Source: an uncultured Candidatus Saccharibacteria bacterium | GTDB lineage: Bacteria > Patescibacteriota > Saccharimonadia > UBA4664 > CAYXHD01 | Length of the DNA: 64,000 nucleotides | Assembly: GCA_964585425.1 (NCBI GenBank) | Contig: CAZPDI010000001.1 | Span: 4,804-68,803, forward strand | Reading direction: 5' to 3' | Shown: positions 9,880 to 56,631 of the stretch, piece after piece | Position numbering within the stretch: position 1 is the first letter of the stretch | Layout of the letters: each line of letters starts with the position of its first letter | Translations under genes and position numbers: made by a program | The notes under the pieces: model-generated | What the model saw: the letters and a program-made list of their open reading frames with translations, nothing else | Database searches by the model: none | Told to the model about the DNA's origin: nothing

Positions 9880-9906
9880 ACCTCTATACTACCATGTCAA
9901 AACCTA

Positions 9907-9936
9907 TTGACATTACTATCACTTGGGAAGATAATA
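9907..9936 (+). promoter_or_regulatory. Candidate promoter of GC-rich cassette 1a
   Basis: TTGACA (9907-9912), an 18-nt spacer, then ATAATA (9931-9936). A 5' stem-loop TGAGCGT/ACGCTCA at 9948-9966 follows. Confidence 0.5.
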
Positions 9937-9977
9937 TCACACATGTTTGAGCGTCTCTGACGCTCAGATAGAAACCC

Positions 9978-10318
9978 GACAAAGCCAACCTACTACCCCG
10001 AAAGAGGTCCCGTGACCAAAATCACGAACCGCAGCATCGCTCCTGCTGGCAGCATCTCCCAGATCGCTCAGCTCCACCAGGACGGAGAGATCGACCGCGA
10101 CCAGACCACTCAGGTGATCGAAGTGGTTGCGGAACATGCCGCAGAGGCGCCAAACACCTGTCCGCGCTGTCAGCGCGCCAACTGCCCAGTGACGAGGGGC
10201 GGCAACTGCCAGTTGCCAGACATGAAGGTGGTGGATCACCTGGTTCGTCAGCTGCAGACCTCCAACTGATCTCGAGTCGGTCCTATGGGATCGAGGGGCG
10301 ACGAGGCTTGGCTTTGTC
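9978..10318 (+). repeat. 11-bp perfect inverted repeat bracketing cassette 1a (leader versus 3' hairpin loop)
   Basis: GACAAAGCCAA at 9978-9988 and TTGGCTTTGTC at 10308-10318. The 3' copy lies in the loop and 3' arm of the hairpin GGGGCGAC(10295-10302)/GTCACCCC(10316-10323). Confidence 0.7.
10012..10269 (+). CDS. GC-rich ORFan, 85 aa, with a C-terminal Cys cluster (CPRCQRANCPVTRGGNC)
   Basis: GTG start 5 nt after the SD AAGAGG. GC3-rich codons. No recognisable family. Confidence 0.55.
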   Translation: MTKITNRSIAPAGSISQIAQLHQDGEIDRDQTTQVIEVVAEHAAEAPNTCPRCQRANCPVTRGGNCQLPDMKVVDHLVRQLQTSN

Positions 10319-10335
10319 ACCCCCTTATAAAATAG

Positions 10336-10364
10336 TTGACTTTACATGATTATTAAAGTATAGT
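10336..10364 (+). promoter_or_regulatory. Candidate promoter of GC-rich cassette 1b
   Basis: TTGACT (10336-10341), a 17-nt spacer, then TATAGT (10359-10364), inside an AT-rich 80-nt spacer between two GC-rich ORFs. Confidence 0.6.
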
Positions 10365-10403
10365 TATTGTCATGCTTGCATACGAAGTATGCGCGCACCT
10401 TAC

Positions 10404-11207
10404 GACAAAGCCAACAACTACACCGAAAGGGGTCCCGATGGGATCTTCTGGAATTCTGGGGTTTCCCAAGGCTGCACACCGCGCCCCCACCATCAGCGAG
10501 GGGTACCAGGAGTACGTCGAGGAGATGACCGGCCTGGCCGTGTGCATGATCTGCGATAGCGGAACATGCCCCGGCGCCAGTGGACGCGCTTGCCCCTATG
10601 AACTCGACGTCTGCACCGTCTGCTGGCAGCTCGACTGCATTAGCGTCTTCGGTCACGACTGCCCTTCGGAGGAACGCTGCAACAACTGCGGTCACCTCCG
10701 GAACGAATTCGGCCATTACAGCAACTGCTCAATGCCCACAATGAAGCTGTGCGACGAGTGCGGGAGCGCAACCTGTCGCGTCAACCCGCCAAAGGAAATG
10801 CGAGAGGAGTACCCGTCGGACTACAATCCGTACTGGGATGACCACCACAGCATCTTCGATACGCTGGGCTGCCTCTTGGGTAGCCCGATCAGCGAGGAAG
10901 AACGGATCGCGGAAGAGATCGCATCGTGTTGGGCTCCGCGCACCGACCAGATGTCCCGAGATCGAGTACGGCAACAGATGCTGAGAACATGGATTGATCG
11001 TGATCTGGACAAAGCAGCTGAGGAAGCTCAGCAGCGCGCCGACCAGATGTCCCAGTCCATGCATCAGCTCACCGAGCTTGCGGACGACTACGACGACGGA
11101 CTGATCTCCGAGAACGTGGTTCTGATGCTCCTCCGGGCTGATCATCGCGGTGTACGGCTCTCCGGGTGACCTTTGAGGGTCGGTGAGCGTCAAGGCTTGG
11201 CTTTGTC
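10404..11207 (+). repeat. Second copy of the same 11-bp inverted repeat pair, bracketing cassette 1b
   Basis: GACAAAGCCAA at 10404-10414 and TTGGCTTTGTC at 11197-11207. The 3' copy lies in the hairpin GGTGAGCGTC(11182-11191)/GTCACTCACC(11205-11214), whose 13-nt loop aAGGCTTGGCTTT is conserved. Confidence 0.7.
10438..11169 (+). CDS. GC-rich ORFan, 243 aa, Cys-rich N-terminal half (14 Cys, four CxxC pairs) and acidic helical C-terminal half
   Basis: The start was moved to ATG 10438, behind the SD GAAAGGGG; the track start 10372 lies in the promoter. CxxC pairs are CMIC, CTVC, CNNC and CDEC. No family recognised. Confidence 0.55.
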   Translation: MGSSGILGFPKAAHRAPTISEGYQEYVEEMTGLAVCMICDSGTCPGASGRACPYELDVCTVCWQLDCISVFGHDCPSEERCNNCGHLRNEFGHYSNCSMPTMKLCDECGSATCRVNPPKEMREEYPSDYNPYWDDHHSIFDTLGCLLGSPISEEERIAEEIASCWAPRTDQMSRDRVRQQMLRTWIDRDLDKAAEEAQQRADQMSQSMHQLTELADDYDDGLISENVVLMLLRADHRGVRLSG

Positions 11208-11275
11208 ACTCACCTAAGTGTATATACACGATAAATACATTTAGGTGAGTATTATTAAGATAAACACAACTTCTA

Positions 11276-11304
11276 TTGACAAATAGGGTTTAGTTTGCTA
11301 TACT
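11276..11304 (+). promoter_or_regulatory. Candidate promoter of GC-rich cassette 1c
   Basis: TTGACA (11276-11281), a 17-nt spacer, then TATACT (11299-11304). Confidence 0.65.
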
Positions 11305-11365
11305 TATGCGCAATCTGGTGGAACACCCATCCGATAGAACACAGACCACAACCCAAGGAAAGCCC

Positions 11366-12103
11366 ATGTCTCAGCTCGTCATCGTCCAGGGCCCCAAGCC
11401 CCGCACGTCCGCGGTGTCCGACAAGGATGCCCACAACCTCCGCCTCCAGGCGGACAAGGTGCTGGCCAGGCACCGCGGTGATCTCCCCCAGGAGATCGTC
11501 ACGCAGCTGACCAGCCCGATGCCCGGCATCGTGGGCATGGGACTGCACGACGCGGCCTCCTGGATCAAGCAGCGCACCGCCAACCTCAAGCTGCAGTACG
11601 TGCAGCAGCACCCCGACTGCGAGGCGGCCATGGCCCTCAAGACCCGAGTCGACAACGTCCTCAACGGCGAGTTCGGCGACAAGGTCAAAAAGAGCCTCGA
11701 CATGCGTGGTCAGCGCATCCTCGAGCTGGACCTGTACCAGATCTTGAGCACCGACCAGCTGAAGAGCTTCGCCCACTTCGTCAAGAAGGCCGAGGCAGTC
11801 GAGGGTCGCTTGCAGACCGAGAAGGCACGCAAGGCGGTGCCGGCCCAATCGCTCCAGATGCTGTTCCCGTCCAAGGAGAAGCGCGAGCGCAAGCCGAAGA
11901 AGGTCAAGCCGGCCTACGCCGGTCTCCCCGCACCGTCCACCGGGATCGTCACCGACTGGAAGAGCGACGTCGGCAGCGTCGGTGCCCCGAACCCCCAGGG
12001 TCCGGCGCCGGCACGCGGCGTCACCCTCCGCAAGTCCGACAAGGCTCGCGCCAAGGGAGTGAAGGGTGGTGGCGTCAAGACCCGTCCGGGGCGACGCAAC
12101 TGA
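11366..12103 (+). CDS. GC-rich ORFan, 245 aa, with a Lys/Arg/Pro/Gly-rich basic C-terminal tail
   Basis: The start was moved to ATG 11366, behind the SD AAGGAAAG; the track start is 11306. The tail reads KEKRERKPKKVKP..KARAKGVKGGGVKTRPGRRN. No family recognised. Confidence 0.55.
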   Translation: MSQLVIVQGPKPRTSAVSDKDAHNLRLQADKVLARHRGDLPQEIVTQLTSPMPGIVGMGLHDAASWIKQRTANLKLQYVQQHPDCEAAMALKTRVDNVLNGEFGDKVKKSLDMRGQRILELDLYQILSTDQLKSFAHFVKKAEAVEGRLQTEKARKAVPAQSLQMLFPSKEKRERKPKKVKPAYAGLPAPSTGIVTDWKSDVGSVGAPNPQGPAPARGVTLRKSDKARAKGVKGGGVKTRPGRRN

Positions 12104-12119
12104 CCAGTTGATCTGCGTT

Positions 12120-12153
12120 CCCCGAGTCATGACATCGTCGTCATGGCTCGGGG
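12120..12153 (+). terminator. GC-rich hairpin closing cassette 1c, convergent with the uvrA 3' end
   Basis: CCCCGAGTCATGAC-atcgtc-GTCATGGCTCGGGG forms a 14-bp stem with one G-U pair. No clear U tract follows. Confidence 0.5.
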
Positions 12154-12163
12154 GATCAACACT

Positions 12164-15016
12164 TTATGACTTATTAGAAAATATACGATTCAAGTAAATA
12201 CCGGTATGGCTGCCTTTTACTTTGGCGACTTTTTCGGGGGTACCTTCGGCTATAACGGTACCGCCACCAGCACCACCTTCGGGGCCCATGTCGACGAGCC
12301 AGTCGCTGGATTTGATGATGTCCAGATTATGTTCGATAATCAGCACTGAGTTACCAGTATCGACGAGACGGTTGAGAACCTGCAGGAGACGTCGGACGTC
12401 TTCGAAGTGCAGACCGGTAGTCGGTTCGTCGAGGATGTAGAGAGTTTTACCGGTGCTACGGCGGCTTAGCTCGGAGGCGAGTTTAATACGCTGAGCTTCG
12501 CCACCACTAAAGGTTGTGGCTGATTGACCGAGGTGAATATAGCCCAGGCCGACATCATTAAGGGTTTCGAACTTGCGGCGAATGGCTGGAATGTTTTCGA
12601 AGAACGCCACCGCTTCTTCGACAGTCATGTCCAAGACTTCGCTAATGTTTTTACCTTTATAACGAATTTCTAAGGCTTCACGGTTATAACGTTTGCCCTT
12701 ACATTCGTCGCAGGTTACATAAACGTCTGGCAAGAAGTGCATTTCGATCTTGATAATACCGTCACCACGGCAGACTTCGCAGCGCCCACCCTTGACGTTA
12801 AAACTAAAGCGCCCGGCTTTATACCCACGAATCTTGGCTTCGGGCGTGGATGCAAATAATTCACGAATGTTGCTAAAGACGCCAGTGTAGGTAGCCGGAT
12901 TAGATCGCGGTGTGCGACCGATTGGCGATTGATCAATACTGATGACTTTGTCCAGATTCTTGAGGCCTTCAATGTCATCGTGTTTGCCAGGAACATCGCC
13001 GGCTCGATGATATACTTGCGCGAGTTTCTTGGAAAGAATGTCGTTAATCAGGCTTGACTTACCAGAGCCCGACACACCGGTAACCGTCGTCATCATGCCC
13101 AGAGGCAATGATACATCGATGCCTTTAAGATTATGCTCGCGGGCATTTTTAATAACTAAGTGCTTGCCATTGCCTGGTCGGCGCTTTTTAGGTATCTCAA
13201 TTTTACGAGCACCACTAATGTACTGGCCGGTTAAACTTTCTTTAACTTTGGCAACTTCGTCTGGCGTACCGGCAGCCACCACGTTACCGCCGTGTTTACC
13301 AGCAGCTGGGCCGATATCGATCACGTAATCGGCCGTGCGGATAGTGTCTTCGTCGTGTTCGACGATAATGACGGTATTACCAAGATTGCGTAGACGCTCC
13401 ATGGTGACGATCAACCGATCATTGTCGCGTTGGTGCAGACCAATGCTTGGTTCGTCCAGGATGTAGAGTACGCCCATCAGACTGGAGCCAATTTGCGTAG
13501 CCAAACGAATACGCTGAGCCTCGCCACCAGCTAGGGTGTTAGCACTGCGATCAAGCGTAAGGTATTGCAGGCCAACATCCTGCAAAAAGCTCAGACGCGC
13601 GCAAATCTCTTTCATGATTTGTTTGGCAATCACTTGATCTTTTTCGCTAAGTTCCAAGCCATCGAAGAACTCTACAGCGTCGCCAATACTATAGGTTGTC
13701 ACATCCGCGATGTTTTTACCGTTGACGGTAACGGCCAACACTTCGGGCTTGAGGCGCTTGCCTTCACACACCGGACAAGGACGTTCGGCCATGTACTTTT
13801 CGATTTCCTTGCGCACAAAGTCACTATCGGTGTCATGATATCGTCGCTCCATATTGGGAATGACGCCCTCAAATGTTGACTGATAGGTACGGCCGCCTGG
13901 ACCGCGTACTGGAATCTTCTCGTCCCCTGTTCCGTACAAAATCGTCTTGAGGTCGTTGGGTTTCATGGCGTTTACGGGCGTATCAATACTAAATCTAAAC
14001 TTATTAGCCACACCATTGAGTAGTTTGGTATACCACGTCATCCGACTCGTAGTACGACTCCATGGGCGAATAGCTCCTTCGTTAATGCTGAGGCGACGAT
14101 TTGGGATGACAAGCTCAGGGTCAACTTCTAAGCGTATACCAAGTCCCGTACAGTGCGGGCAGGCACCATGCGGTGAGTTAAAACTAAAGTTACGGGGAGC
14201 AATTTCTGGAAAACTGATCTCGCGGTGCACCGGACAGGCAAAGTGCTCGCTAAAGTCTTTTTCTTCATCAGTATCCACAAAGTGAACCTTAACGATGCCG
14301 TCACCCAGGCCCAACGCTTGTTCCACCGATTCGCTCAATCGCTTAACGACATCTTCGGCAATAACCAATCGATCGACGATGGCCTCTACGGTGTGCTTTT
14401 TTTGTTTATCGAGATCCGGGAATTCATCAATATCATATAGAGTGCCGTTAACCCGCAAGCGCGAATACCCAGCTTTTTTAAGTTCTTGCACGACACCGCG
14501 ATGCTCGCCCTTTTTGTCGCTAACTACTGGCGCAATAATCATGATTTTAGAATCTTGCGGGGATTTCATGATTTGGCTCACAATTTGATCGGCCGATTGT
14601 TTGGTGACTTCGCGACCGCAGACGGGACAATGTGGCACGCCAACGCGCGCGTACAAAAGACGCAAATAATCATAAATTTCCGTAACGGTACCAACCGTAC
14701 TGCGCGGATTACGGCTCGACGATTTTTGATCAATAGAAATCGCTGGGCTCAGACCGTCAATTTGATCGACGTCTGGTTTTTCCATAAGACCCAAAAACTG
14801 CCGGGCGTAGGCACTTAGGCTCTCGACGTAACGGCGCTGACCTTCGGCATAAATGGTATCGAATGCCAAGCTAGACTTGCCTGATCCAGAAAGGCCAGTA
14901 ATAACGACCAGCTTATCGCGTGGAATCTCCACGTTAATATTTTTGAGATTATGCTCCCGGGCACCACGAACTACGATTTTGTCATGCATAACAGACGGTT
15001 CTCCACGGTGACTCAC
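12164..15016 (-). CDS. uvrA: Excinuclease ABC subunit A
   Basis: 950 aa with two ABC ATPase modules ([18 protein letters not shown]) and zinc-finger Cys clusters. The true start may be the internal Met at 14989. Confidence 0.95.
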
Positions 15017-27611: not shown

Positions 27612-27704
27612 AGAAGCGTCTTTCTTATGCTTCTATTGTACCCCGCTTATGGTTATTTTCTCAAGAGATACCAAAGCATGTTATACGGATTCGAGATGCG
27701 GTAT

Positions 27705-28223
27705 TTATCTAAGATTATCTACTGATTGAGACTGAACCCATATCGGTCCACCAGGGTACTTGTTGAATATATTCCCGTACACTAAATAACTAGCCTTAGT
27801 TGCGGTGAATTCTGCACTGCAATGTAGCTCAGTAGAAGTTCCGTATGTTTTAGTCGAAACGGCCCTCTTGCCAACATACTTGTAATTTAAATCGTACATT
27901 CGCATACTCAATTCTACCGTGGCCCGTCTGCCGCCCGACGCATAAGCACGCACACAGTATCTATATGTGCCACCCTTAGCTATTTTGACAAGCTTTGGCT
28001 CAAAGTCACTACTCTGCACTTCCTTACCCTCTGATATAGACATTTGCCGCTGCGTGCGCCAAAGGGAAACCCATGAGCTAGCGCTACTAAAGCGCACCAC
28101 CAGGGCACCAATGATTGCGACAGCCGCAATGCCGCCAACAATAAGCCATTTATTAACTTTCTTTTTTTGACCGGCTTTAAGTTTTGACTTAGTTACTGGT
28201 TTCTTTGTTGCCTTCGCAGCCAT
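27705..28223 (-). CDS. Membrane-anchored hypothetical protein
   Basis: 172 aa with a Lys-rich N-terminus, one TM helix and a beta-rich ectodomain. Confidence 0.45.
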   Translation of the reverse strand: MAAKATKKPVTKSKLKAGQKKKVNKWLIVGGIAAVAIIGALVVRFSSASSWVSLWRTQRQMSISEGKEVQSSDFEPKLVKIAKGGTYRYCVRAYASGGRRATVELSMRMYDLNYKYVGKRAVSTKTYGTSTELHCSAEFTATKASYLVYGNIFNKYPGGPIWVQSQSVDNLR

Positions 28224-28915: not shown

Positions 28916-29496
28916 ACTTCTAGTTCCTTTCCTCTGAACTCGGGCAGCTGCATAAGTTCTTCGATCGAGTTTGCATTTTTAAATATGTCTGAATAATAAC
29001 GTAAACGCTGCTTAGCTCCAAGTGATTTGAACTCATCAAGGGTCATATATTCTACAACTATCTTCTCACCATTATCCATATTTTGATCAATTTGCTCATC
29101 AAAATCAGTTGCGACAAACGTATATACAAGCCAATCCACCTTATGAACCGGCGCCGATACGGTAACAAGTTTCCAGCTCTTAAATCGTAAGCCAGTCTCT
29201 TCGGCGAGCTCACGTTGCGCGGCCTGAAGTTCAGTTTCGGCCTCAACGTCGTGACGACCCGCCGGAATATCATAGAACTCTTTTGTGCCGGGCTGCTGCT
29301 CATGCACTACTACCAACTTATCGTCCTTAATAGCTATTACTTCAACGGTGTCAGGGCGCTTAAGCATCTCAAAGGTTTCGACGCTGCCATCAAACATGGT
29401 TTGTTGCCAGTGATATACATCAAAAATAACTCCATCAAAAACTTTCTGCGCCTTGTCCGGCAGGAGCTGTGCGTTCTCAGGAACAACCGTTCGCAT
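28912..29496 (-). CDS. NUDIX hydrolase
   Basis: 194 aa with a Nudix-box-like sequence: GRHDVEAETELQAAQRELAEETGL. Confidence 0.7.
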   Translation of the reverse strand: MRTVVPENAQLLPDKAQKVFDGVIFDVYHWQQTMFDGSVETFEMLKRPDTVEVIAIKDDKLVVVHEQQPGTKEFYDIPAGRHDVEAETELQAAQRELAEETGLRFKSWKLVTVSAPVHKVDWLVYTFVATDFDEQIDQNMDNGEKIVVEYMTLDEFKSLGAKQRLRYYSDIFKNANSIEELMQLPEFRGKELEV

Positions 29497-29500
29497 AGGT

Positions 29501-30028
29501 CTACTGTGCGGCTTCGATTGATTTCTTAATTACTTCGCGAGCTTCGGCGGCGTTGCCCCAGCCGTTAAAGCTAACTGGCGTACCTGCCCAATCCTTCTTC
29601 CAATCCTTGTAGTGAGTATAGAAATGCTCCACAACTTTTTTAAATTCTGGGCCAAGATCTTCTACTTCTTGTATGTGGCTCTTGCTAACATCATCTGCGG
29701 CTACACAAATGAGTTTTTCGTCACCTTCGCCATCATCAATCATATTAAGCACGCCAATGGCGCGAGCCGGAACAACGATACCGGCTGGAACAGATTCGTC
29801 AATTATCACTAAGGCGTCGAGTGGATCGCCGTCATCACAAAGCGTTTCTGGCACATACCCATAATCGGCCGGATAGCCAAGAACTGTTCCGTTTACACGA
29901 TCAAGCGTGATCATGCCCGTTTCTTTATCCATTTCGTATTTGTTGCGACTACCTTTTTGAATTTCGATAATAACGTTGATTTCGTCTGGGGCGTTTTTGC
30001 CCGGACCAATGTGGGTGTGATGACTCAT
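29501..30028 (-). CDS. ppa: Inorganic pyrophosphatase (family I)
   Basis: 175 aa with NVIIEIQKGSRNKYE, YGYVPETLCDDGDPLDALV and the DDGEGDEK motifs. Confidence 0.9.
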   Translation of the reverse strand: MSHHTHIGPGKNAPDEINVIIEIQKGSRNKYEMDKETGMITLDRVNGTVLGYPADYGYVPETLCDDGDPLDALVIIDESVPAGIVVPARAIGVLNMIDDGEGDEKLICVAADDVSKSHIQEVEDLGPEFKKVVEHFYTHYKDWKKDWAGTPVSFNGWGNAAEAREVIKKSIEAAQ

Positions 30029-30088
30029 ATAAGCTTCCTTTTATCTGGTTAGATTATAGCAAAGCCGGCACATTTGCACCACAATTAC

Positions 30089-30117
30089 TTGATTAAATAT
30101 TACTTTTATAGTAGAGT
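30089..30117 (+). promoter_or_regulatory. Candidate promoter of GC-rich cassette 2
   Basis: TTGATT (30089-30094), a 17-nt spacer, then TAGAGT (30112-30117). Confidence 0.45.
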
Positions 30118-30181
30118 TTGCTTATTCTTTTACAATCTAGCTAATCAGCCCACCACAACCAAACAAACAAAGGAGCGAGCG

Positions 30182-30556
30182 ATGATCACATGTGAAGTGC
30201 AGGACCAGGCTGGCGGGAAGTCCACGAGCGTCATCACCCTCGGTGATGCCCTGGCTGCCGTTGCCTACCTGATCGGCATCAGCGGGAACTCCCAGCTTGA
30301 GTACCACGAGCTGATCGAGGGCCAGTCGTTGACCATCATCTCGGAAGGACATGCCCTCGTTGGGCAGATCGAGATGCCGGACTTCGAGGAGGAGGAGCCC
30401 TACTTCGGCCTGATGTACACCTTCTCCAGCAACGGCGATCGCGACTTCGAGCTGTTCAGCCTGCTGGTTCTGCCGGCAATGTTGCTGAACCTGCAGCAAT
30501 GCGAACCGCAGGTGATCATCGAGCTCGAGCGGATGCGCCAACCGGTGACCGCCTGA
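30182..30556 (+). CDS. GC-rich ORFan, 124 aa, acidic
   Basis: The start was moved to ATG 30182, behind the SD AAAGGAG and a CA-rich leader; the track start 30074 lies in the AT-rich promoter. No family recognised. Confidence 0.55.
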   Translation: MITCEVQDQAGGKSTSVITLGDALAAVAYLIGISGNSQLEYHELIEGQSLTIISEGHALVGQIEMPDFEEEEPYFGLMYTFSSNGDRDFELFSLLVLPAMLLNLQQCEPQVIIELERMRQPVTA

Positions 30557-30573
30557 GGTTGCGGTGAGTAGGC

Positions 30574-30595
30574 CAGGTTCCCTCCGGGGAATCTG
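30574..30595 (+). terminator. Hairpin with C(UCCG)G tetraloop closing cassette 2
   Basis: CAGGTTCCC-tccg-GGGAATCTG forms a 9-bp stem with one G-U pair. No U tract. It is convergent with the HAD gene. Confidence 0.45.
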
Positions 30596-30630
30596 TGCCG
30601 ACCACCGGCTGATTGGCTAGATAAAAAGAT

Positions 30631-31191
30631 TTATGATAAAAGTTTTTGAACTTGCGAGATCGAGGTATACAGCTCGGCTTGTAAGCCGGCTCGCAGGGCG
30701 CCGTCGACGTTGGCTTGGCGATCATCAAAGAATATAACATCTTGAGCCTCAAAACCTAATTGCTGTACAGCATACTGGTAAATACGAGCATCGGGCTTCA
30801 TCATATTTAATTCACCCGAAATAAAGATTTGATCAAAATGCCGAGTAATACCATGACCTTCCATATACGGCCGTAAGCTTGAGCCATCATTAGAAAGCAC
30901 GGCGGTTTTTATTCCCTTTTGTCGCAACTGATCAATGACTGCCAGCAAGGGGTGGTTGATAGCTACTTCGTTTTTAAGCTCCTGCTTAACAACCGAAACG
31001 GGACGTCCCACCCCGGCGGCTAATGCTTCGAAATACTGGTCTAGGCTAATCTCGTCCAGATCAATTTTGCGAGATGCCTCTTTTACCACATCATGGATGT
31101 CAGGATGTTGCGCTACTTGGTTTTCGGCCCAAATAATAACTTCGTCCGTTTGGATAACGCCATAAAAATCAAAGATGGCCGCTTTAATCAT
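30631..31191 (-). CDS. HAD-superfamily hydrolase (subfamily IA-like)
   Basis: 186 aa with AAIFDFYGVI (motif I), LSND (motif II) and FFDD (motif IV). Confidence 0.7.
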   Translation of the reverse strand: MIKAAIFDFYGVIQTDEVIIWAENQVAQHPDIHDVVKEASRKIDLDEISLDQYFEALAAGVGRPVSVVKQELKNEVAINHPLLAVIDQLRQKGIKTAVLSNDGSSLRPYMEGHGITRHFDQIFISGELNMMKPDARIYQYAVQQLGFEAQDVIFFDDRQANVDGALRAGLQAELYTSISQVQKLLS

Positions 31192-40006: not shown

Positions 40007-40040
40007 AGTATGGTTCTGCTACCTATCCCTAAGGATTCCA

Positions 40041-40415
40041 ATGAATGCACCTGCCCGTCCCATGCCCGACATCACCGATGTGGAGCTGACCAAGAAGATC
40101 ATCGATGAACGTGTGAAGCACCACAACCTGCGCCATGAAGATGGTGAAGCGATCTGGATGGTAGTCACGGCCATCGGTCATGCCATCAAGATCGGTGATC
40201 CTCAGTACAGCCCGATGATCGACCGCAACGTCACGGGGCTGCGCAACGAGGCGAGGCCAGGCGAAGTTCCGGTCATCTTGCTGTCCGACCTGAACCGCAT
40301 CTTCTGTGACGACACGTTGATACGCGAGCTGCAGCGGGTGTTCCCGAGCATCGTCAATGATGCGGCGCGCGTTGCCTGCTGGAAGTTCCGCAACTGCATG
40401 TACGGATGCGACTGA
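40041..40415 (+). CDS. GC-rich ORFan, 124 aa (variable partner of module copy 1)
   Basis: ATG follows the SD TAAGGA. GC3-rich codons. It ends in the junction GAC TGA TC ATG. Confidence 0.55.
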   Translation: MNAPARPMPDITDVELTKKIIDERVKHHNLRHEDGEAIWMVVTAIGHAIKIGDPQYSPMIDRNVTGLRNEARPGEVPVILLSDLNRIFCDDTLIRELQRVFPSIVNDAARVACWKFRNCMYGCD

Positions 40416-40417
40416 TC

Positions 40418-40627
40418 ATGCGCCTTCGGATCCCCTGGCGCAAGCAAACCGTGCCGCCGCCACCCGCGACTGTCGCGATGAAGGCTGCGCCCCTGGTGCC
40501 GCCACCTCATCGCCGGATGACGGCCGAAGAACGCGCTGCGTGCTGCCAAGATCAGAGGAAGATCAAGCTGCGTGCTGCCAAGCGTTGTCGGCGCAAGGCC
40601 CGAAAGCGCCGACTGCGCAACAAGTAA
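40418..40627 (+). CDS. Pro-rich / strongly basic mini-protein, 69 aa (conserved partner, copy 1)
   Basis: The start was set at ATG 40418, matching the paralog junction TGATCATG; the track start is 40406. It shares the core VAMKxAPLxPPPxRRMTAEERAA and a K/R tail with ORF 42234..42467. Confidence 0.55.
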   Translation: MRLRIPWRKQTVPPPPATVAMKAAPLVPPPHRRMTAEERAACCQDQRKIKLRAAKRCRRKARKRRLRNK

Positions 40628-40647
40628 CCCCCGTGAGGCGGATCGCC

Positions 40648-40680
40648 GAAAGGTCCCTCTTGCGGGGGATCTTTCGTTAT
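40648..40680 (+). terminator. Terminator hairpin, divergent copy of the conserved island-3 terminator
   Basis: GAAAGGTCCC-tcttgcg-GGGATCTTTC followed by GTTAT. Confidence 0.55.
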
Positions 40681-40687
40681 GGTGATA

Positions 40688-40716
40688 TTGATTTATACCT
40701 GTAAATGTGATTAAAT
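40688..40716 (+). promoter_or_regulatory. Candidate promoter of GC-rich unit 3b
   Basis: TTGATT (40688-40693), a 17-nt spacer, then TTAAAT (40711-40716) with upstream TG. Confidence 0.5.
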
Positions 40717-40750
40717 TTCCCTATTCCGTTTCGAGTCCAAAGGAGAGACC

Positions 40751-40984
40751 ATGACGGACGCACATGCCACGGCCGTCTCCACGGTCTATTTTTGGCTCGA
40801 GTACGAGTTGGGTATCGATAATCCTGATCACGTTGAACTGACCATGATTATCGAGAATGGCTGGCTGCGCTATCGGTGCCCGGCCCACGACATCACCCCG
40901 CTTGAAATCGCCCGCCTCGAAGCTGCCTGCCGGCACCACGCCCATTCTCTTGAAGTGCACCTGAACCTGGAGGTTCAATCATGA
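40751..40984 (+). CDS. GC-rich ORFan, 77 aa
   Basis: ATG follows the SD AAAGGAGAG. ATGA overlap at 40981-40984 couples it to the next ORF. Confidence 0.5.
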   Translation: MTDAHATAVSTVYFWLEYELGIDNPDHVELTMIIENGWLRYRCPAHDITPLEIARLEAACRHHAHSLEVHLNLEVQS

Positions 40985-41733
40985 TTGTCCACAAGCACGA
41001 CATCGATACCGCAGCTCGTCTGGCCGCCAAAGAGCGGTTCATGAACGAGTCATGGCTGGATGATCGCAAGGTGCGATCATGGTTCGCTTGGCTCGGTATC
41101 CGTCCTGACGGTCATCAAGCATTGCGCATCTTGCGCGCTGTGCATGCCACGGCTGCCACCGTGCGTGAGTACAAGATCCACCATCGCCACACGCGCTTCG
41201 GTCGAACGATGCGCCTGCAGCGCCGGCTCCCACCGTGGCCCGCCAAGTACGCGGATACCCCGGTCATCAATGCCGCGCAGATGCTGCTGGTGACTCAGCG
41301 CACGGACTACATCCACCTCACGGAGCTGACGCGACCAATTACGGGTACCAGTTATCGGCACGGCGACAATCGACGCGTCGATATGGAAACGTGCAAGATG
41401 TTCCTGGAGAACGTGCAGAGCAAGTTCATGCGCGAAGCCGTTTGGTCAGATGAGTTGGTATGTATCGAGAGCTTTGCGCGGCTCGGCCTGACGCCCGATG
41501 AGCTGCTGGTGGCCGAGATGGCTCTGATCCGTCTGATGAGTAGGTATCGGCACGAAAAGGGGCTTACCTGGTATCTGATGCCGACCTATGGCAGCCGGAG
41601 CCGCCGCTTGCACACCCTCACCATGGGTGATTTCTTGAACATCACCCGATTTCTCCAACCCAACTATGGCGACACCGACATGGAGTTTCTCATGACGCTG
41701 GCCGATCGTCTGCGTTCGCGACTTGCGACCTGA
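40981..41733 (+). CDS. GC-rich ORFan, 250 aa, Arg/His-rich
   Basis: Translationally coupled to the 77-aa ORF. No motif recognised. Confidence 0.55.
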   Translation: MIVHKHDIDTAARLAAKERFMNESWLDDRKVRSWFAWLGIRPDGHQALRILRAVHATAATVREYKIHHRHTRFGRTMRLQRRLPPWPAKYADTPVINAAQMLLVTQRTDYIHLTELTRPITGTSYRHGDNRRVDMETCKMFLENVQSKFMREAVWSDELVCIESFARLGLTPDELLVAEMALIRLMSRYRHEKGLTWYLMPTYGSRSRRLHTLTMGDFLNITRFLQPNYGDTDMEFLMTLADRLRSRLAT

Positions 41734-41753
41734 TCTCGACACATACCCTCGCG

Positions 41754-41796
41754 GGGGCTTTTCTACGGAAAGGTCCCTGCGGGGGATCTTTCGTTT
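41754..41796 (+). terminator. Conserved 43-nt terminator element, copy A
   Basis: The element reads GGGGCTTTTCTACGGAAAGGTCCCTGCGGGGGATCTTTCGTTT. It contains the mini-hairpin CTTTTC-tacg-GAAAGG plus a 10-bp stem GAAAGGTCCC/GGGATCTTTC and a T-rich tail. Confidence 0.65.
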
Positions 41797-41801
41797 ATAG
41801 C

Positions 41802-41830
41802 TTGCAATATCAATACTTTAAATGTATAAT
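41802..41830 (+). promoter_or_regulatory. Candidate promoter of GC-rich unit 3c
   Basis: TTGCAA (41802-41807), a 17-nt spacer, then TATAAT (41825-41830) preceded by TG. Confidence 0.65.
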
Positions 41831-41859
41831 TTGTAAATCCGTACGACCAAGGAGTACCC

Positions 41860-42231
41860 TTGACCGAAGCCAATACCCTACCCAAGGCCGATGCCAGCGT
41901 CAAGCTGTCCGACGACATCATCGCAAGCTGCTACGAGGGCTGCGATCCCCGTGAGTCCGATCGAGCTCGCGGCTGCATCGCCGCCCTCAAGGACCTGCTA
42001 CGGCTCGCCGAGAAGACGCCGAACGACGCGCGCTACCAGGAGATCCGGGAGTTCGACGCCGACACCCTGACCGTTGGCCAGTTCATCACCCTGATGTACC
42101 TGCCGGCGATGTCGCCGAATCAGCCCCGCCAGCTGATGCGCAACGTGCGTAGCAACTGGGGGCGACTCAACCAGCGAGTTCTCATCGAGCTGCGAGACAA
42201 GCTGGATGAGCGCTACGAGCCCCAGGACTGA
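41860..42231 (+). CDS. GC-rich ORFan, 123 aa (variable partner of module copy 2)
   Basis: TTG start 5 nt after the SD AAGGAG. It ends in the same GAC TGA TC ATG junction as 40041..40415, but the two proteins show no visible similarity. Confidence 0.5.
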   Translation: MTEANTLPKADASVKLSDDIIASCYEGCDPRESDRARGCIAALKDLLRLAEKTPNDARYQEIREFDADTLTVGQFITLMYLPAMSPNQPRQLMRNVRSNWGRLNQRVLIELRDKLDERYEPQD

Positions 42232-42233
42232 TC

Positions 42234-42467
42234 ATGGGCATCTGGAACTCTCGGCGCAAGAAGACGACACCACCGCCACCTCCTCCTGCACCTCCTCCGC
42301 CGCCCGCGGCTGTCGCGATGAAGACTGCACCACTGGCGCCGCCACCGCGTCGCCGAATGACGGCCGAAGAACGCGCCGCTCTCAAGCTGCCCAAAGTGAA
42401 GGCCCGGCAGCGCCTGGCCAAGAACCGACGCGCCAAGGTCAGGAAGCGCAAGCACAAGAAGTCCTGA
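42234..42467 (+). CDS. Pro-rich / strongly basic mini-protein, 77 aa (conserved partner, copy 2)
   Basis: Paralog of 40418..40627. It contains PPPPPPAPPPPPAAVAMKTAPLAPPPRRRMTAEERAA and the tail KARQRLAKNRRAKVRKRKHKKS. Confidence 0.6.
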   Translation: MGIWNSRRKKTTPPPPPPAPPPPPAAVAMKTAPLAPPPRRRMTAEERAALKLPKVKARQRLAKNRRAKVRKRKHKKS

Positions 42468-42479
42468 TCGCGCCCCTGT

Positions 42480-42523
42480 GGGGACTTTTCTACGGAAAGG
42501 TCCCTGCGGGGGATCTTTCGTTT
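42480..42523 (+). terminator. Conserved 44-nt terminator element, copy B
   Basis: The element reads GGGGACTTTTCTACGGAAAGGTCCCTGCGGGGGATCTTTCGTTT. It is identical to copy A except for one inserted base. Confidence 0.65.
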
Positions 42524-42534
42524 TTAAATGAGAA

Positions 42535-44422: not shown

Positions 44423-44457
44423 ATACGCATCTTGGCCGTCTAGCAAAAGGAAACATC

Positions 44458-44868
44458 ATGCCAAGCGCACAGACCATCCTCCCTCTGACCGCCGAACAGG
44501 TGGCCATGCCCGTGACCGCTGCCATCCTCACCACGGAGGACATCATCGGCGACCACGGGAGGTACCCGAAGGACATCGCTCACAGCTTGTCCACCATCTG
44601 CGAGTTCCTGCAGGAGGTCAAGCGGGAGGTCAAGCAGAGTCCAAGGGCCTACCTCGGCTGGTTGGAGTTGGCGGATGAGAACGGGGTGCGCTTCAGCGAG
44701 CGCGATTACCCCAGCATCACCGCAGGGTTCCTCCTGGCCGTGATGGAATCCAGCGCCGCCTGGGGCACCGTGATGAAGCACGGTCCGGAGGACTACTGCT
44801 TCGAGCAGCTGAACATGCTGAGGACGGCGGTCTACGCCCTCCTCTTCAAGCGGTCGCTGGCTGGCTGA
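44458..44868 (+). CDS. GC-rich ORFan, 136 aa
   Basis: The start was moved to ATG 44458, behind the SD AAAAGGAAA; the track start 44413 lies in the promoter. No motif recognised. Confidence 0.55.
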   Translation: MPSAQTILPLTAEQVAMPVTAAILTTEDIIGDHGRYPKDIAHSLSTICEFLQEVKREVKQSPRAYLGWLELADENGVRFSERDYPSITAGFLLAVMESSAAWGTVMKHGPEDYCFEQLNMLRTAVYALLFKRSLAG

Positions 44869-44893
44869 GGTTCTTCCTCCGCCAGCACCACGC

Positions 44894-44940
44894 CCCACTC
44901 GGGGTCTTCTACGGAAGACTCCGAGTGGGTTTTTCGTTTA
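44894..44940 (+). terminator. Intrinsic terminator with C(UACG)G tetraloop closing cassette 4
   Basis: CCCACTCGGGGTCTTC-tacg-GAAGACTCCGAGTGGG forms a 16-bp stem with one G-U pair, followed by TTTTTCGTTTA. It is convergent with typA. Confidence 0.75.
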
Positions 44941-44944
44941 TGCC

Positions 44945-46777
44945 TTACTTTTTGTTATTAGCGGCGCGCTTGCGCATGGAGGGGTTGAGTTCGCGTTTGC
45001 GGAGGCGGAGACTCTTGGGTGTGACTTCCAATAGCTCGTCGTTTTCCAGGAAGTCGATGCATTGTTCGAGGCTAAAAATAGTGTGTGGCGTGAGGCGGAC
45101 AGTGCCGTCACTGGATGAGCTACGCATGTTAGTGAGGTGTTTTTCTTTACAGACATTCATTTCCATATCGTCACCGCGGCTGTTGAGACCGACGATCTGA
45201 CCAGCGTAGACTTTGACGCCAGGACCAACGTACATGGTGCCGCGTTCTTCGGCCATTTGCAGGGCGTACGGCGTGGTCGTGCCAGTTTCGAAGGCAATCA
45301 GGGCACCGTTACGAAGTTGCTGCAGGGCGGGACCTTGCGGTTCGTAACCAACCATCAAGCTGTTCATGATAATTGTGCCCTTAGTGGCAGTTACTAAGAC
45401 GTTTCGAAGACCAAGTAAGGCTCGGGTTGGGAGTTCGTACACCAGTTTAGTGACGCCAGCGGCGTTGGCGAACTGCTCTTTAACGGTGGCGCGGCGTTGG
45501 CCAAGCTCCATTTGGACGGCACCGACGTATTCGGCCGGAACTTCGATGATGAGCTCTTCGATTGGCTCCATGGTCTTGCCGTTTTCTTGCTTGGTAACAA
45601 CTTGCGGGCGGCCAACTTCTAGCTCGTATCCTTCGCGGCGCATAGTTTCGATGAGCACCGACAGGTGTAGTTCGCCACGACCACTAACTAAATTGCCAAT
45701 TCCGCTGGGCTCGACACGCAGGCCAATATTGGTCTCCAGTTCTTTTTCGAGCCGTTCACCGATTTGACGGCTGGTAGTAAACTCACCTTCTAGACCCTTG
45801 AATGGACTAGTGTTTGGTCCTAGGTAAATCTGCAATGTTGGAGCTTCGATTTCCAGCACTGGTAGAGCTTCGGGCTGTTCGGCATCAGCAATGGTTTCAC
45901 CAATCTTGGCGTTAGCAATACCAGTAAGCTGGATAATCTCACCAGCAATGGCGCTGTCCACCGGATACTTGCTCACGCCTTGGCTGGCAAACACGCCATC
46001 AACTTTGGCTTTAGATTGCTTACCGTCTTTATCGATAAGGGTAACAGCATCACCAGTTTTAACACTACCGCGGGTAATGCGACCAACAGCGTATTTACCC
46101 TTAAATGAATCATACGAGAGAGCAGTGACAAGCATCTGGAAAGGCTTATCGAGCTCTACGTCTGGCGCAGGAATATCGTTCTTAATGGCAGTAAAGATTA
46201 CCTCCAGGTTAGCATCTTCTTCGGGATTAGCTGGCACCCCGGCCCAAGCTTTACCGGCGCGACCAATGGCGTAATAAATTGGGTAAAAGAGTTGATCTTC
46301 GTGCACGGCCAGCTCGAGGAAGAGGTCAGCTAATTCTTCTTCGACTTCGGCAATACGACTACCTGGCTTATCAATTTTGTTAATAACAACGATAGGCTTG
46401 AGACCCATGGCAAGTGCCTTAGAAAGCACAAACTTAGTTTGTGGCATCGGACCTTCTTGGGCGTCGACTATCAGTAAACAGCCGTCTGCCATATTAAGGG
46501 TTCGCTCTACCTCACCACCAAAGTCGGCGTGTCCAGGCGTATCGATAATATTAATGCGGATATCATCGTGCTGCACGGCCGTAACTTTAGCGGTAATAGT
46601 AATACCGCGCTCGCGCTCTTGGTCGCCACTATCCATGATCAGTTCTTGACCCATCTCGGCCTGGTTATCACGAAAGATTTTTGACTGCTTTAACAGGCCA
46701 TCTACCAGGGTAGTTTTACCGTGATCGACGTGAGCAATAATAGCAATATTACGAATGTTTTTTGGATCTTGTTGCAT
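44945..46777 (-). CDS. typA: Translational GTPase TypA/BipA
   Basis: 610 aa with [33 protein letters not shown] and NKID, plus the TypA-specific C-terminal domain. Confidence 0.95.
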
Positions 46778-54639: not shown

Positions 54640-54642
54640 GCT

Positions 54643-54672
54643 GGCGCCGAGCGAGTCTTCCCGCCCGGCGCC
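54643..54672 (-). terminator. GC hairpin after pyrC
   Basis: GGCGCCG (54643-54649) pairs with CGGCGCC (54666-54672), a 7-bp GC stem 17 nt after the pyrC stop. No U tract. Confidence 0.45.
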
Positions 54673-54688
54673 AATCTCATGCTGCTGG

Positions 54689-55771
54689 CTACCCTGTCCA
54701 GCGCTGACGCTGCAGATCCTCTACCTGCCAACGCAACGTTTGTCCCGCCCGGAATGGCACCACCCCGCCGATCTCTTCAGGCACAGCCCAGGGGATCCTC
54801 GACAACAACACATAATTGTCGTCTTGTGGGGGCTCGACGCCGTAGAACTTGCAACCAGCAATGGAGACAAACTGCTCCAGCCTCTCCGGCCAGTCCTCCA
54901 GACCACTGTCCTCGAACAGTTCCGCCAGCACCGGCAGAGCAACTGGTCCGGAATACACGCCGTTGTTAGGCTTTGCCTTCAGCTTGTCCTCGATTCGATG
55001 AGGCGCCGAGTCGCTACCGAAGAAGATCTTGGGCGGATCACCCGGCTTGACACTGAGCATCGCAGCCAAGATGGCTTGACGATCTTCCTCGGTCTTGGCT
55101 CGCGGCAAACAGGCATGATGCGGCTGATCGATGACACCATCGTGCTCAACGTCATTAATGGTCAAGCATGGATGATGAGCCGTGATGGTGGCAGCGACGT
55201 TGGCCGGCAGCTCCATGATGAGGTTGATGGCATCGGCAGAAGAGACGTGCTCGAAGACGATTCGCAGACCCGGGAATGCCTCATGCACCTCCATGAACAG
55301 CTCGAGGAACATCTGCTCAGCATGAGCGAGATCGTCGGTTGAGACTTCGCCGTGCACGTTAAGCACGACATCAAGCTCCTGCATCACTTCAAATACTGGC
55401 CACCCGTCGTGGATATCCCGCAAACCAAAACCCGAATGAGTCGTGGTGTTGTACGGATAATACTTGACCGAACAGAATCCGTTGCGACGTTCGTACATCA
55501 GACGGATGATCGCTTCATCAGTGTCTGGCGTGAGGTACAAGGTCGGCCACAAGTTCACCATGTTCAGGCCTTTCAGCCCTGCCTGCACCTCTTGCAGATA
55601 GTGGAACGCATGCATAGCGTCACTTACTGGCACCGGGTTGAGGTTTGGCATGAGCAAGGCGTAATGGAGATGACCAATGCTGGGACGAACAACATCTTTC
55701 AGCAGACGTCCTTGACGAACATGAACGTGCCAATCGCTCGGACGACGCATCTTGAGTGCCAAGTAGGGCAT
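54689..55771 (-). CDS. pyrC: Dihydroorotase, short homodimeric (E. coli-like class II) type, GC-rich
   Basis: 360 aa. Motifs line up with E. coli PyrC as I remember it: KMRRPSDWHVHVRQG, MPNL, VKYYPYNTTT (carboxylated Lys position), HGEV, VFEHVSS, ATITAHH, FFGSDSAPH, FYG, VPFRAGQTLRW. Confidence 0.85.
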   Translation of the reverse strand: MPYLALKMRRPSDWHVHVRQGRLLKDVVRPSIGHLHYALLMPNLNPVPVSDAMHAFHYLQEVQAGLKGLNMVNLWPTLYLTPDTDEAIIRLMYERRNGFCSVKYYPYNTTTHSGFGLRDIHDGWPVFEVMQELDVVLNVHGEVSTDDLAHAEQMFLELFMEVHEAFPGLRIVFEHVSSADAINLIMELPANVAATITAHHPCLTINDVEHDGVIDQPHHACLPRAKTEEDRQAILAAMLSVKPGDPPKIFFGSDSAPHRIEDKLKAKPNNGVYSGPVALPVLAELFEDSGLEDWPERLEQFVSIAGCKFYGVEPPQDDNYVLLSRIPWAVPEEIGGVVPFRAGQTLRWQVEDLQRQRWTG

Positions 55772-55839
55772 GGTGAGTCCTTTCGGGACGTTGTGAGTGA
55801 ACGAACAAAGGTGTGCCTAAGCACACCTCCATAACCATT

Positions 55840-55867
55840 ACTATACACTATTATTCATAAATTGCGA
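55840..55867 (-). promoter_or_regulatory. Candidate pyrC promoter, near-duplicate of the 54612-54639 promoter
   Basis: On the minus strand: TCGCAA-tttatgaataatagtg-TATAGT. The shared string is GCTCGCAATTTATGAAnAATAGnTGTATA. A leader hairpin AGGTGTGC-ttag-GCACACCT follows. Confidence 0.45.
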
Positions 55868-55871
55868 GCGT

Positions 55872-55901
55872 CTGGGCCAGGGGAACTCTCCCCCGGCCCA
55901 G
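55872..55901 (-). terminator. GC hairpin after the pyrE-like gene
   Basis: CTGGGCCAGGGGA-actc-TCCCCCGGCCCAG forms a 13-bp stem with one mismatch. No U tract. Confidence 0.45.
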
Positions 55902-55923
55902 CGCGAACCGTTGAATACGGGGC

Positions 55924-56583
55924 TCAGGCTGCGAGTAACTGGACCCAGCCACCCTCGTACTGCGGGTTGACCTCATCGCGGTAGTGGGCACCGTGACCCA
56001 GCGCACCATCGACAACAATGGGCTTGCCAGCTTCACAGAGCGGACAAGCTTCGGCGTCGTAGGACGCGAAGTCCACGTGCGTCAGCTGCTCCAACCGGGG
56101 AACTCCGATGGCGTCAGCCTCCACACCGCCTCGGTTGCAGACGGCACTGATGCCGATCACCTCACCACCACAGGCTTCGATGGCCGCGCAGGTGCCCTGA
56201 ACCGAACTGCCAGTGGTCAGCAGATCCTCGATCACGAGAACGCGTTTGTTCTGCAGGTGCTGCGGGAAGCTCAGGCGATCGACCACGAAGTTGTTGCCCT
56301 CCTTGTCGGCCCACAGGCCAGGCACACGAAGACCCTTCTTGTGCAGTAGCCAGTTCGAGGCAGTGCTGGTGAGCGCCACGCCACCGGTTGCCGGTGATGC
56401 GACAACATCGAAACCGCCGTCGAATGGTCTGAGGAGATCCGAGACGATCTGGCTGAGCATCACTGGATCAGCGAAGATCGGGTCCATGCAGATGTAGCCC
56501 TCACCGTGTCCACCCTTCTTGTACACGAAGTGGTTGTCGAGAAAGACGGCTCCGACCTTCTGGAGGTACTCGAGAATGTCCAT
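55924..56583 (-). CDS. pyrE: Type I phosphoribosyltransferase, probable orotate phosphoribosyltransferase, GC-rich
   Basis: The start was moved to Met14 (56583), behind the SD AGGAA. The PRPP-binding motif is RVLVIEDLLTTGSS. The position between pyrC and pyrF supports the call. A C-terminal CPLCEAGKP motif is present. Confidence 0.6.
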   Translation of the reverse strand: MDILEYLQKVGAVFLDNHFVYKKGGHGEGYICMDPIFADPVMLSQIVSDLLRPFDGGFDVVASPATGGVALTSTASNWLLHKKGLRVPGLWADKEGNNFVVDRLSFPQHLQNKRVLVIEDLLTTGSSVQGTCAAIEACGGEVIGISAVCNRGGVEADAIGVPRLEQLTHVDFASYDAEACPLCEAGKPIVVDGALGHGAHYRDEVNPQYEGGWVQLLAA

Positions 56584-56631
56584 GTGCGTTCCTAACGTGA
56601 GACGAATGCGCCAACTGGTCACATCCGAATT

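Follow-up and report, generated by a model that had tools for sequence, protein, structure and literature searches.

Conserved, covarying complementary arms enclose the gene of an acidic ORFan in Candidatus Saccharibacteria

Functional pairing between the 5′ and 3′ ends of bacterial mRNAs is, to our knowledge, known from just a handful of single genes. Type I toxin mRNAs (hok, aapA1) encode small hydrophobic toxins, have an antisense RNA as partner and are kept translationally inert by fold-back of the message, while the RNase III stems of rRNA operons and of phage T7 bracket rRNAs or sit as local hairpins between genes. In the hbs mRNA of Bacillus subtilis, a 14-bp interaction that links the 5′ untranslated region (UTR) with the 3′ UTR modulates cleavage by RNase Y (Braun, Durand and Condon 2017, PMC5737220), and in icaR of Staphylococcus aureus 5′-3′ UTR pairing forms an RNase III substrate (Ruiz de los Mozos et al. 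2013, PMC3868564). The locus described here lies in a 64,000-nt stretch of DNA from an uncultured bacterium (contig CAZPDI010000001.1, positions 4,804 to 68,803 of the forward strand; the whole stretch is called the window), the source of which was placed in Candidatus Saccharibacteria by the relatives of its Ppa protein (best matches: metagenome-assembled genomes at 70–76% identity). Between ppa and a HAD hydrolase gene, the window carries a GC-rich cassette with one open reading frame (ORF) for an acidic protein, and the leader and 3′ flank of this ORF contain two complementary arms. The pairing of the arms is conserved and covarying, predicted folds close the ends of the transcript, and the insert extends past the arms on both sides. 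On balance we lean towards reading the repeat as the core of a conserved bipartite RNA frame, a 5′/3′ mRNA clamp that would protect or process the transcript ends.

The repeat had been described in the original prediction as 14-bp arms in an inserted island (CTAGCTAATCAGCC, 30137–30150, and GGCTGATTGGCTAG, 30607–30620, with one odd position) and was ascribed either to pairing of transcript ends or to terminal inverted repeats of an inserted element. All of the coordinates (ORF, promoter hexamers, CA-rich leader, 3′ hairpin and repeat arms) were found to be correct, and the odd position is a U·G pair. The inverted repeat is real and longer than 14 nt: an inverted-repeat search gave 16-nt arms (30135–30150 and 30607–30622) that are 456 nt apart and 94% complementary (15 Watson–Crick pairs and one U·G), and the complementarity runs on inward as CACCACAACC/GGTTGCGGTG and outward as UCUUUU/AAAAGA. 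The hairpin 3′ of the stop codon reads CAGGTTCCC-TCCG-GGGAATCTG. The parts of the cassette and its surroundings are the following (H0, H1 and H2, paired segments; P3, hairpin; MFE, minimum free energy; GC3, GC content at third codon positions).

30089–30117, plus strand: putative cassette promoter TTGATT-17-TAGAGT (TTGATT 30089–30094, TAGAGT 30112–30117), read from the sequence; outside the left arm, inside the insert.
30126–30131, plus strand: H0 5′ strand UCUUUU (partner 30624–30629), from the MFE fold of 30125–30630; a similar extension is present in L137; weakly conserved.
30135–30150, plus strand: H1 5′ arm ATCTAGCTAATCAGCC, from repeat search, covariation and folds; pair probability 0.99.
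30151–30160, plus strand: H2 5′ strand CACCACAACC (partner 30557–30566), from the MFE fold; two H2 pairs have compensatory changes.
30161–30181, plus strand: CA-rich unpaired linker with the Shine–Dalgarno sequence AAGGAG at 30170–30175, from sequence and fold; every cassette has a like linker.
30182–30556, plus strand: ORF of 124 aa, acidic (isoelectric point 4.05), GC 0.60, GC3 0.84, without annotated homologue.
30557–30566, plus strand: H2 3′ strand GGTTGCGGTG, directly after the stop codon, from fold, alignment and covariation.
30568–30602, plus strand: P3, a GC-rich hairpin with a UCCG loop that branches between H2 and H1, from the fold and the RNAalifold consensus.
30607–30622, plus strand: H1 3′ arm GGCTGATTGGCTAGAT, from repeat search, covariation and folds.
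30624–30629, plus strand: H0 3′ strand AAAAGA, from the MFE fold.
29501–30028, minus strand: ppa, left neighbour of the ORF.
30054–30077, minus strand: relic of the original HAD 3′ end beside ppa, aligning with the true 3′ end of HAD at the empty sites L143, L145, L147 and L149; left edge of the insert.
30631–30648, minus strand: replaced HAD C-terminal codons (..QKLLS and stop), right edge of the insert; occupied sites share TTATGATAA[AC]AG, and empty sites end differently and longer.
30631–31191, minus strand: HAD hydrolase gene, right neighbour of the ORF.

The frame was found in at least five other Saccharibacteria assemblies (loci of relatives are labelled L001 and so on). L001–L003 carry near-identical copies of the window cassette; L009 has two tandem cassettes at the same HAD-ppa site; L140 has two, of which the second is without a promoter, begins 20 nt after the first and has its own pair of arms; L141/L142 and L144 have one each; in L107 a contig end leaves the 5′ part of the cassette only; and L137 (= L102, L136, L138, L139) has, elsewhere in its genome, a cassette framed in the same way. 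The order of parts is AT-rich promoter, 5′ arm, CACCACAACC, CA-rich linker with AAGGAG and ORF (124–164 aa, GC3 0.80–0.93), followed immediately after the stop codon by GGTTGYGGTG, a GC-rich hairpin, the linker GACCACC and the 3′ arm. Mean column identity of the frame was 84%, compared with 19–27% amino-acid identity of the enclosed proteins. The promoter hexamers of the window match the consensus at 8 of 12 positions and were not called by a consensus scan; the aligned promoters of relatives are stronger (TTGACA/TAATAT in L009-A, TTGACT/TAATAT in L140-X, TTGACA/TAAGAT in L137), and the −10 box lies 16–19 nt from the 5′ arm in every cassette with its own promoter. In L144 (4560–4640, minus strand) a deletion has removed most of the 5′ arm, and the promoter directly adjoins a remnant, GCCAGTT; a C-to-T change in the 3′ linker (CACTGGC, read from the sequence) makes a new 6-bp match, GCCAGU/ACUGGC, with this remnant.

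Seven distinct cassettes (window, L009-A, L009-B, L137, L140-X, L140-Y and L141) were compared in a block alignment that was built by hand around the arms (5′ block, H2 3′ strand and 3′ arm). At the 26 proposed pairs, 96.2% of cells were paired, compared with 18–37% when the partner was slid by 1–3 columns. Both sides had changed at 5 of the 26 pairs (7 cells), two of them contributed by H2; double changes in the arm were A-U to C-G at position 10, C-G to U-A at position 15, and G-C, G·U and A-U at position 6. Neither the observed covariation score nor the number of doubly changed cells was reached in any of 500 shuffles. Substitution paths ran through G-C, G·U and A-U at one pair and through U·G and C-G at another, and on the sense strand the non-Watson–Crick cells comprised 8 of G·U type and 3 of A·C type (small, non-independent numbers), a bias that fits pairing in the sense RNA. 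For P3, the RNAalifold consensus of nine sequences had nine pairs with changes on both sides.

The window transcript from 30125 to 30630 (506 nt) was predicted to fold with an MFE of −230.9 kcal/mol (z = −7.3 relative to dinucleotide shuffles). In this structure 30126–30131 pairs with 30624–30629, 30135–30150 with 30607–30622 and 30151–30160 with 30557–30566, with P3 in between, which gives a three-way junction; AAACAAACAAAG upstream of the start codon is unpaired, as is the Shine–Dalgarno sequence (30170–30175) in both the MFE and the centroid structure. Full-length MFE folds closed both ends in all eight cassettes folded (15–16 of the 16 H1 pairs, probability 0.93–1.00). A scan of the plus strand from 29950 to 30720 for intrinsic terminators gave none, P3 being followed by GACCACC and the 3′ arm with no U run. 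Searches against Rfam 15 gave a tRNA as the sole match above the gathering threshold in the window and nothing credible in 30029–30640 at E ≤10.

Chance was assessed at the level of the window and locally. Inverted repeats of 14 nt with ≤1 mismatch and a spacing of 100–800 nt were found at six places in the 64 kb and those of 16 nt with ≤1 mismatch at two, against a hand-calculated expectation of about 0.5 per 64 kb, so that the repeat is not significant by itself in a window-wide count. The second 16-nt case (18 nt, one mismatch, 12747–12764 and 13369–13386) falls within the coding sequence of uvrA and probably arose by chance. Locally, the 153-nt upstream region and the 74-nt 3′ UTR matched at 15 positions in their best 16-mer, a score that none of 2000 shuffles attained (maximum 14, in two of them; P < 0.001); the duplex energy between 5′ UTR and 3′ UTR was −41.7 kcal/mol, compared with −22 ± 4 for mismatched or shuffled partners. 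The 13/14 match as first described is in itself unremarkable in 64 kb, yet the frame recurs in other genomes, and the deciding evidence against chance is comparative: the arms are conserved in these genomes with compensatory changes.

Further copies were sought in sequence collections. Scanning with the 5′ arm gave 42 metagenome and 10 viral matches, of which L102 and L107 only were genuine, the others being without a 3′ partner; the viral scan with the 3′ arm gave 74 chance-like matches with covariance-model scores of 24–26 bits, compared with 56–92 bits for real elements. The frame was not found in IMG/VR, a covariance-model search of about 40 other Saccharibacteria ppa loci gave no further copies, and a literature search on Saccharibacteria cassettes or GC islands gave nothing relevant. 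Next to the L137-type cassette, on the opposite strand (L102/L136, 640–860, minus), a small GC-rich ORF was noted, with promoter-like sequence of its own, a Cys-rich product of about 50–60 aa and a canonical intrinsic terminator (GC hairpin, then T run).

The boundaries of the insert were determined by comparison with relatives in which the site is empty (L143, L145/L146, L147/L148, L149 and L224; HAD and ppa 24–26 nt apart), and these five lineages bear out the claim of an inserted island. Junction alignments place the insert at about 30077–30645, because the HAD 3′ relic stays beside ppa and the HAD C-terminus of occupied sites is replaced; on the minus strand the relic contains TGCTATAAT, likely the extended −10 box of ppa. 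The arms lie about 58 nt (left) and 25 nt (right) inside the insert with the promoter outside the left arm, and the proposal that they are terminal inverted repeats accordingly fails. Their flanks (TCTTTTACA and AAAAAGA) are complementary to each other and are not direct repeats, so that no target-site duplication is present. The length of the HAD protein (186 versus 189 aa) was considered as a proxy for occupancy and ruled out, since L224 combines a 186-aa HAD with an empty site.

Identity in Ppa, TrxB and HAD does not sort the occupied (six) from the empty (five) lineages, which are intermixed, and the three matrices disagree with one another: Ppa of L107 (occupied) is 94–96% identical to that of three empty-site genomes, and TrxB of L143 (empty) is 94% identical to that of the two-cassette L009. 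Identity between the window and L001 is a mosaic (about 34% to 100% in 100-column bins), which suggests frequent homologous recombination in the lineage. Between 27000 and 34000 of the window, tracts of 100% identity to L001 (30935–31334) adjoin tracts of 83–90%, and about 27680–28040 and 28938–29540 (the latter covering the NUDIX gene) are just 34–72% identical, as if divergent alleles had been swapped in. The neighbours of the site are ppa, NUDIX, HAD, trxB, glutaredoxin and mscL; no recombinase, transposase, integrase or invertase domain was recorded among the called genes within 10 kb in L001. One copy of the frame is present in the 64-kb window, and the occurrence at a second locus is in another genome (L137). 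Homologous recombination is the simplest route for gain, loss and stacking, given that the lineages are intermixed, identity is mosaic, no recombinase was recorded and the frame was not found in IMG/VR; the module with its promoter is an insertion–deletion polymorphism at the HAD-ppa junction, and it probably spreads between strains in this way.

The protein encoded by the ORF has 19 Asp and Glu and 4 Lys and Arg residues. It and its relatives had no match in Pfam, PHROGs, PADLOC, NCBIfam, a PDB profile search or phage records (tblastn), and exhaustive searches of 1.8 billion representative proteins gave a family of 6–8 members. AlphaFold on a five-sequence alignment gave a mean pLDDT (predicted local distance difference test) of 54, too low for a fold search. 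In the comparison of the window with L001, the nonsynonymous and synonymous divergences of the ORF were dN 0.032 and dS 0.048 (dN/dS, omega, 0.67), compared with dN 0.010–0.023, dS 0.18–0.51 and omega 0.03–0.06 for ppa, HAD and trxB; the low dS of the ORF suggests that the tract was shared recently. The two copies differ by an in-frame indel, which together with the omega of 0.67 indicates that the gene is coding and weakly constrained or diversifying. The GC content of the window is 0.49, and GC3 of ppa and HAD is 0.43–0.44; in every member of the family (window, L009, L137, L140, L141 and L144) GC3 is 0.80–0.93, though the proteins are 19–27% identical and the genomes have about 46–50% GC. 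Long-resident neutral genes are expected to drift towards the composition of the genome. Selection on the RNA or repeated import may explain the persistently high GC3.

Transcript-end pairing, one of the two explanations offered for the repeat at the outset, is supported by the covariation, the sense-strand G·U bias, the constant 16–19 nt between −10 box and arm and the closed folds (8/8). In the clamp reading, the extreme 5′ end of the sense transcript would pair with its extreme 3′ end through H0, H1 and H2, with CACCACAACC of H2 meeting GGUUGCGGUG just past the stop codon. With P3 added, the result would be a three-way junction in which the entire mRNA, about 500 nt long, is closed and its ends are buried in a duplex of about 26–32 bp. 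Such a clamp may shield the ends from 5′-end-dependent and 3′-exonucleolytic decay, or may set them by double-strand-specific cleavage, and would hold the ribosome-binding site, in the unstructured CA-rich linker, clear of the GC-rich coding body. The outcome would be a stabilised message with defined ends and insulation, that is, a self-contained expression module for a fast-evolving acidic ORFan. Three points are inferred here: that the transcript spans both arms, that the clamp influences the stability or processing of the RNA, and how the module spreads.

Several points weigh against this reading. The transcription start and the 3′ end are predictions, the window's own promoter matches just 8/12 of the consensus, and the helix is not followed by a U-tract, so that the 3′ end may lie further downstream. 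The alignment comprises just seven sequences, phylogenetically non-independent and aligned by hand around the arms; a recombinase that binds both repeats, or recombination that homogenises them, could mimic covariation. H2 contains A·C mismatches and forms in 4 of 8 MFE folds, the alternative being local GGUGG/CCACC pairing, and where cassettes stand in tandem, local pairing between a 3′ arm and the 5′ arm that follows is also possible. L144 retains the rest of its 3′ arm intact despite the loss of most of the partner strand. There is also a likeness between the ppa leader at the left junction (TGGTTTGAT-TATAG) and the 3′ arm plus flank (TGGYTAGAT-TATAG), a direct repeat of about 14 nt that hints at a DNA-level origin and may be a trace of how the insertion arose.

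Closest to the clamp stands the proposal that the same helix acts negatively or as a processing signal, as an RNase III substrate of about 26–32 bp through which polycistronic or read-through RNA is cut into monocistronic units (as in phage T7 early mRNAs and rRNA precursors) or the message is led to decay as in icaR. We hold this to be unlikely, while a real contender: H1 and H2 amount to 26 bp stacked on a continuous 5′ strand, which is within the usual size of RNase III substrates, and in L140 what looks like a single transcription unit contains two framed cassettes, of which the promoter-less second favours processing. The 5′-3′ pairing of icaR does make an RNase III substrate (PMC3868564), whereas here the Shine–Dalgarno sequence is outside the duplex; the present evidence does not separate cleavage from protection. 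The arms would have no function at all if they were a relic of the duplication or rearrangement behind the insertion, or a chance match, and the two 15/16-type repeats seen in the window, where about 0.5 are expected, and the likeness of the 3′ arm to the ppa leader would agree with that. This is already disfavoured, and we give it very little credence: the arms were kept while the protein diverged to 19–27% identity, compensatory changes occurred, and the local shuffle test gave P < 0.001.

Two further explanations place the function in the DNA. The arms might serve as sites at which a small non-autonomous cassette (mobile insertion cassette, pdif-type or attC-like) recombines or transposes, or as homology handles for swapping and stacking, which we regard as quite unlikely. 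It would account for a polymorphic site with six occupied and five empty lineages intermixed, for one or two cassettes per site and the same frame at another locus in L137, for the direct repeat of about 14 nt that the ppa leader shares with the end of the 3′ arm, and for arms that are nearly identical between different cassettes. Yet the insert reaches beyond both arms, by about 58 nt with the promoter on the left and by about 25 nt with the replaced HAD end on the right; their flanks are complementary without target-site duplication; no transposase or recombinase domain was recorded within 10 kb in L001; the window has a single copy and IMG/VR none; a sense-strand G·U bias and a hairpin in one arm only are unexpected for protein-bound repeats; and, given the mosaic identity of window and L001, ordinary homologous recombination is enough to spread the insertion. 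An inverton, in which an invertase flips ribosome-binding site and ORF against a fixed promoter for ON/OFF phase variation, has a geometry that fits (promoter outside the arms, ORF inside, arms 456 nt apart), and recombination between the arms would maintain their co-evolution. It is highly improbable in view of an ORF in the ON orientation at all nine independently assembled occupied loci, the lack of any recorded invertase nearby in L001, complementarity that extends as H2 with a hairpin interrupting one side only, and L144, which is without most of one arm.

Other GC-rich islands of the window were inspected for the same arrangement. Island 1 (9900–12165, plus strand) consists of three GC-rich ORFan cassettes, each with an AT-rich promoter (ORFs 10012–10269, 10438–11169 and 11366–12103; GC3 0.73–0.90). 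Common to cassettes 1a and 1b is a different arm pair (GACAAAGCCAAC at 9980 and 10405, GGCTTGGCTTTGTC at 10306 and 11195), which closes the transcript in MFE folds with a duplex-energy z of only about −2; each of the two cassettes also has a small 5′ hairpin. By duplex energy and folds, no 5′/3′ pairing was seen in cassette 1c or in the cassettes of islands 3, 4 and 5. The 5′/3′ theme that had been proposed as common to islands 1 and 2 thus holds for 1a and 1b and does not extend to the other GC-rich cassettes: it is real and confined, since only island 2 (the cassette studied here), 1a and 1b show such pairing. The AGCCAA motif given as common to islands 1 and 2 is present and trivial.

Cassette 1c ends in a long hairpin (12104–12160). 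The ORFan units of islands 3 and 4 (40010–42530 and 44432–44945, plus strand) are GC-rich and have promoters of their own; a repeated 3′ element some 54 nt long (..GGGSCTTTTCTACGGAAAGGTCCCTGCGGGGGATCTTTCGTTT) is found at 41746 and 42473, with diverged copies near 40640 and 44901, and could form two mutually exclusive hairpins. Two proline-rich, very basic ORFs in this region (73 aa, 40406–40627; 77 aa, 42234–42467) are duplicates with 87% identity over 86 nt. Island 5 (54640–57745, minus strand) has three GC-rich genes (GC3 0.66–0.78), each with an AT-rich promoter-like spacer and a 3′ hairpin. From their sequences these look like pyrimidine-synthesis genes (orotidine monophosphate decarboxylase, 56743–57693; orotate phosphoribosyltransferase, 55924–56622; dihydroorotase, 54689–55771), and they look horizontally acquired and arranged as single-gene units. 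TTATGA, which recurs after several cassettes, was considered as a signal and rejected: on reading the sequence it is the reverse complement of Ser-stop at convergent gene ends.

A wider reading, which we put forward as speculation of low probability, takes the frame as a portable expression chassis of soil Saccharibacteria (promoter, clamp, open ribosome-binding site and GC hairpin) for diversifying genes with host-like codon usage (GC3 0.8–0.9). If so, composition and clamp would be selected together, as high GC3 outlasts divergence to about 20% identity, and the mRNA might be exceptionally nuclease-resistant; the frames would serve as handles for cassette swapping and stacking at hot spots, an integron-like outcome reached through RNA structure and homologous recombination. 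More speculatively still, the RNA or the gene product might be adapted to work in the epibiont's GC-rich actinobacterial host. Apart from the chassis reading, the frame marks a small hypervariable locus and a rare, acidic, weakly constrained gene family of persistently foreign base composition, and genes of this kind may plausibly serve in host interaction or conflict in Saccharibacteria. The frame also offers a simple natural blueprint for an expression cassette that insulates itself. Saccharibacteria are now genetically manipulable.

Set beside the described systems, the frame is a variant of the known 5′/3′-UTR interaction, modular and better conserved than the protein that it encloses, in a barely studied episymbiotic phylum. 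Small modules of promoter and ORF or of ORF only, inverted repeats and copy variation at hot spots are shared with mobile insertion cassettes, pdif modules and integron cassettes; unlike in those, the arms are inside the insert, target-site duplication is absent from the flanks, no recombinase was recorded nearby, and attC-type core motifs and geometry are absent. An attC site (57–141 bp contiguous, R″ RYYYAAC, R′ GTTRRRY) was tried as a description and rejected, the arms being 456 nt apart around the ORF and ATCTAGC and GCTAGAT each being one base off the cores; GTTAGAT was read in some relatives only, and the genes called in 20 kb of L001 included none with a recorded integrase domain. As with the RNase III stems of rRNA operons and T7, flanking sequences pair into a long duplex around a unit in a longer transcript (compare the tandem cassettes of L140), whereas those stems bracket rRNAs or are local intergenic hairpins; processing of the cassette is proposed by analogy. 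With hok and aapA1 it shares a long-distance 5′-3′ interaction that closes the full-length mRNA, and differs from them in its soluble-looking acidic product of 124 aa, in having no antisense gene identified and in its open ribosome-binding site. The complementary UTR segments are kept in evolution, as in the class of 5′/3′-UTR interactions, and pairing over the Shine–Dalgarno sequence, another mark of that class, was not found, 30170–30175 being unpaired in MFE and centroid structures. In icaR, by contrast, the 3′ UTR pairs with the Shine–Dalgarno region and blocks translation, whereas in the cassette this sequence is free in the CA-rich linker. The hbs mRNA is like the cassette in its 5′/3′-UTR pairing, which in hbs modulates ribonuclease access; the pairing of the cassette is longer (about 26–32 bp with H2 and H0), lies at the predicted transcript ends and includes a branching hairpin, and its frame is portable and common to paralogous cassettes in several genomes.

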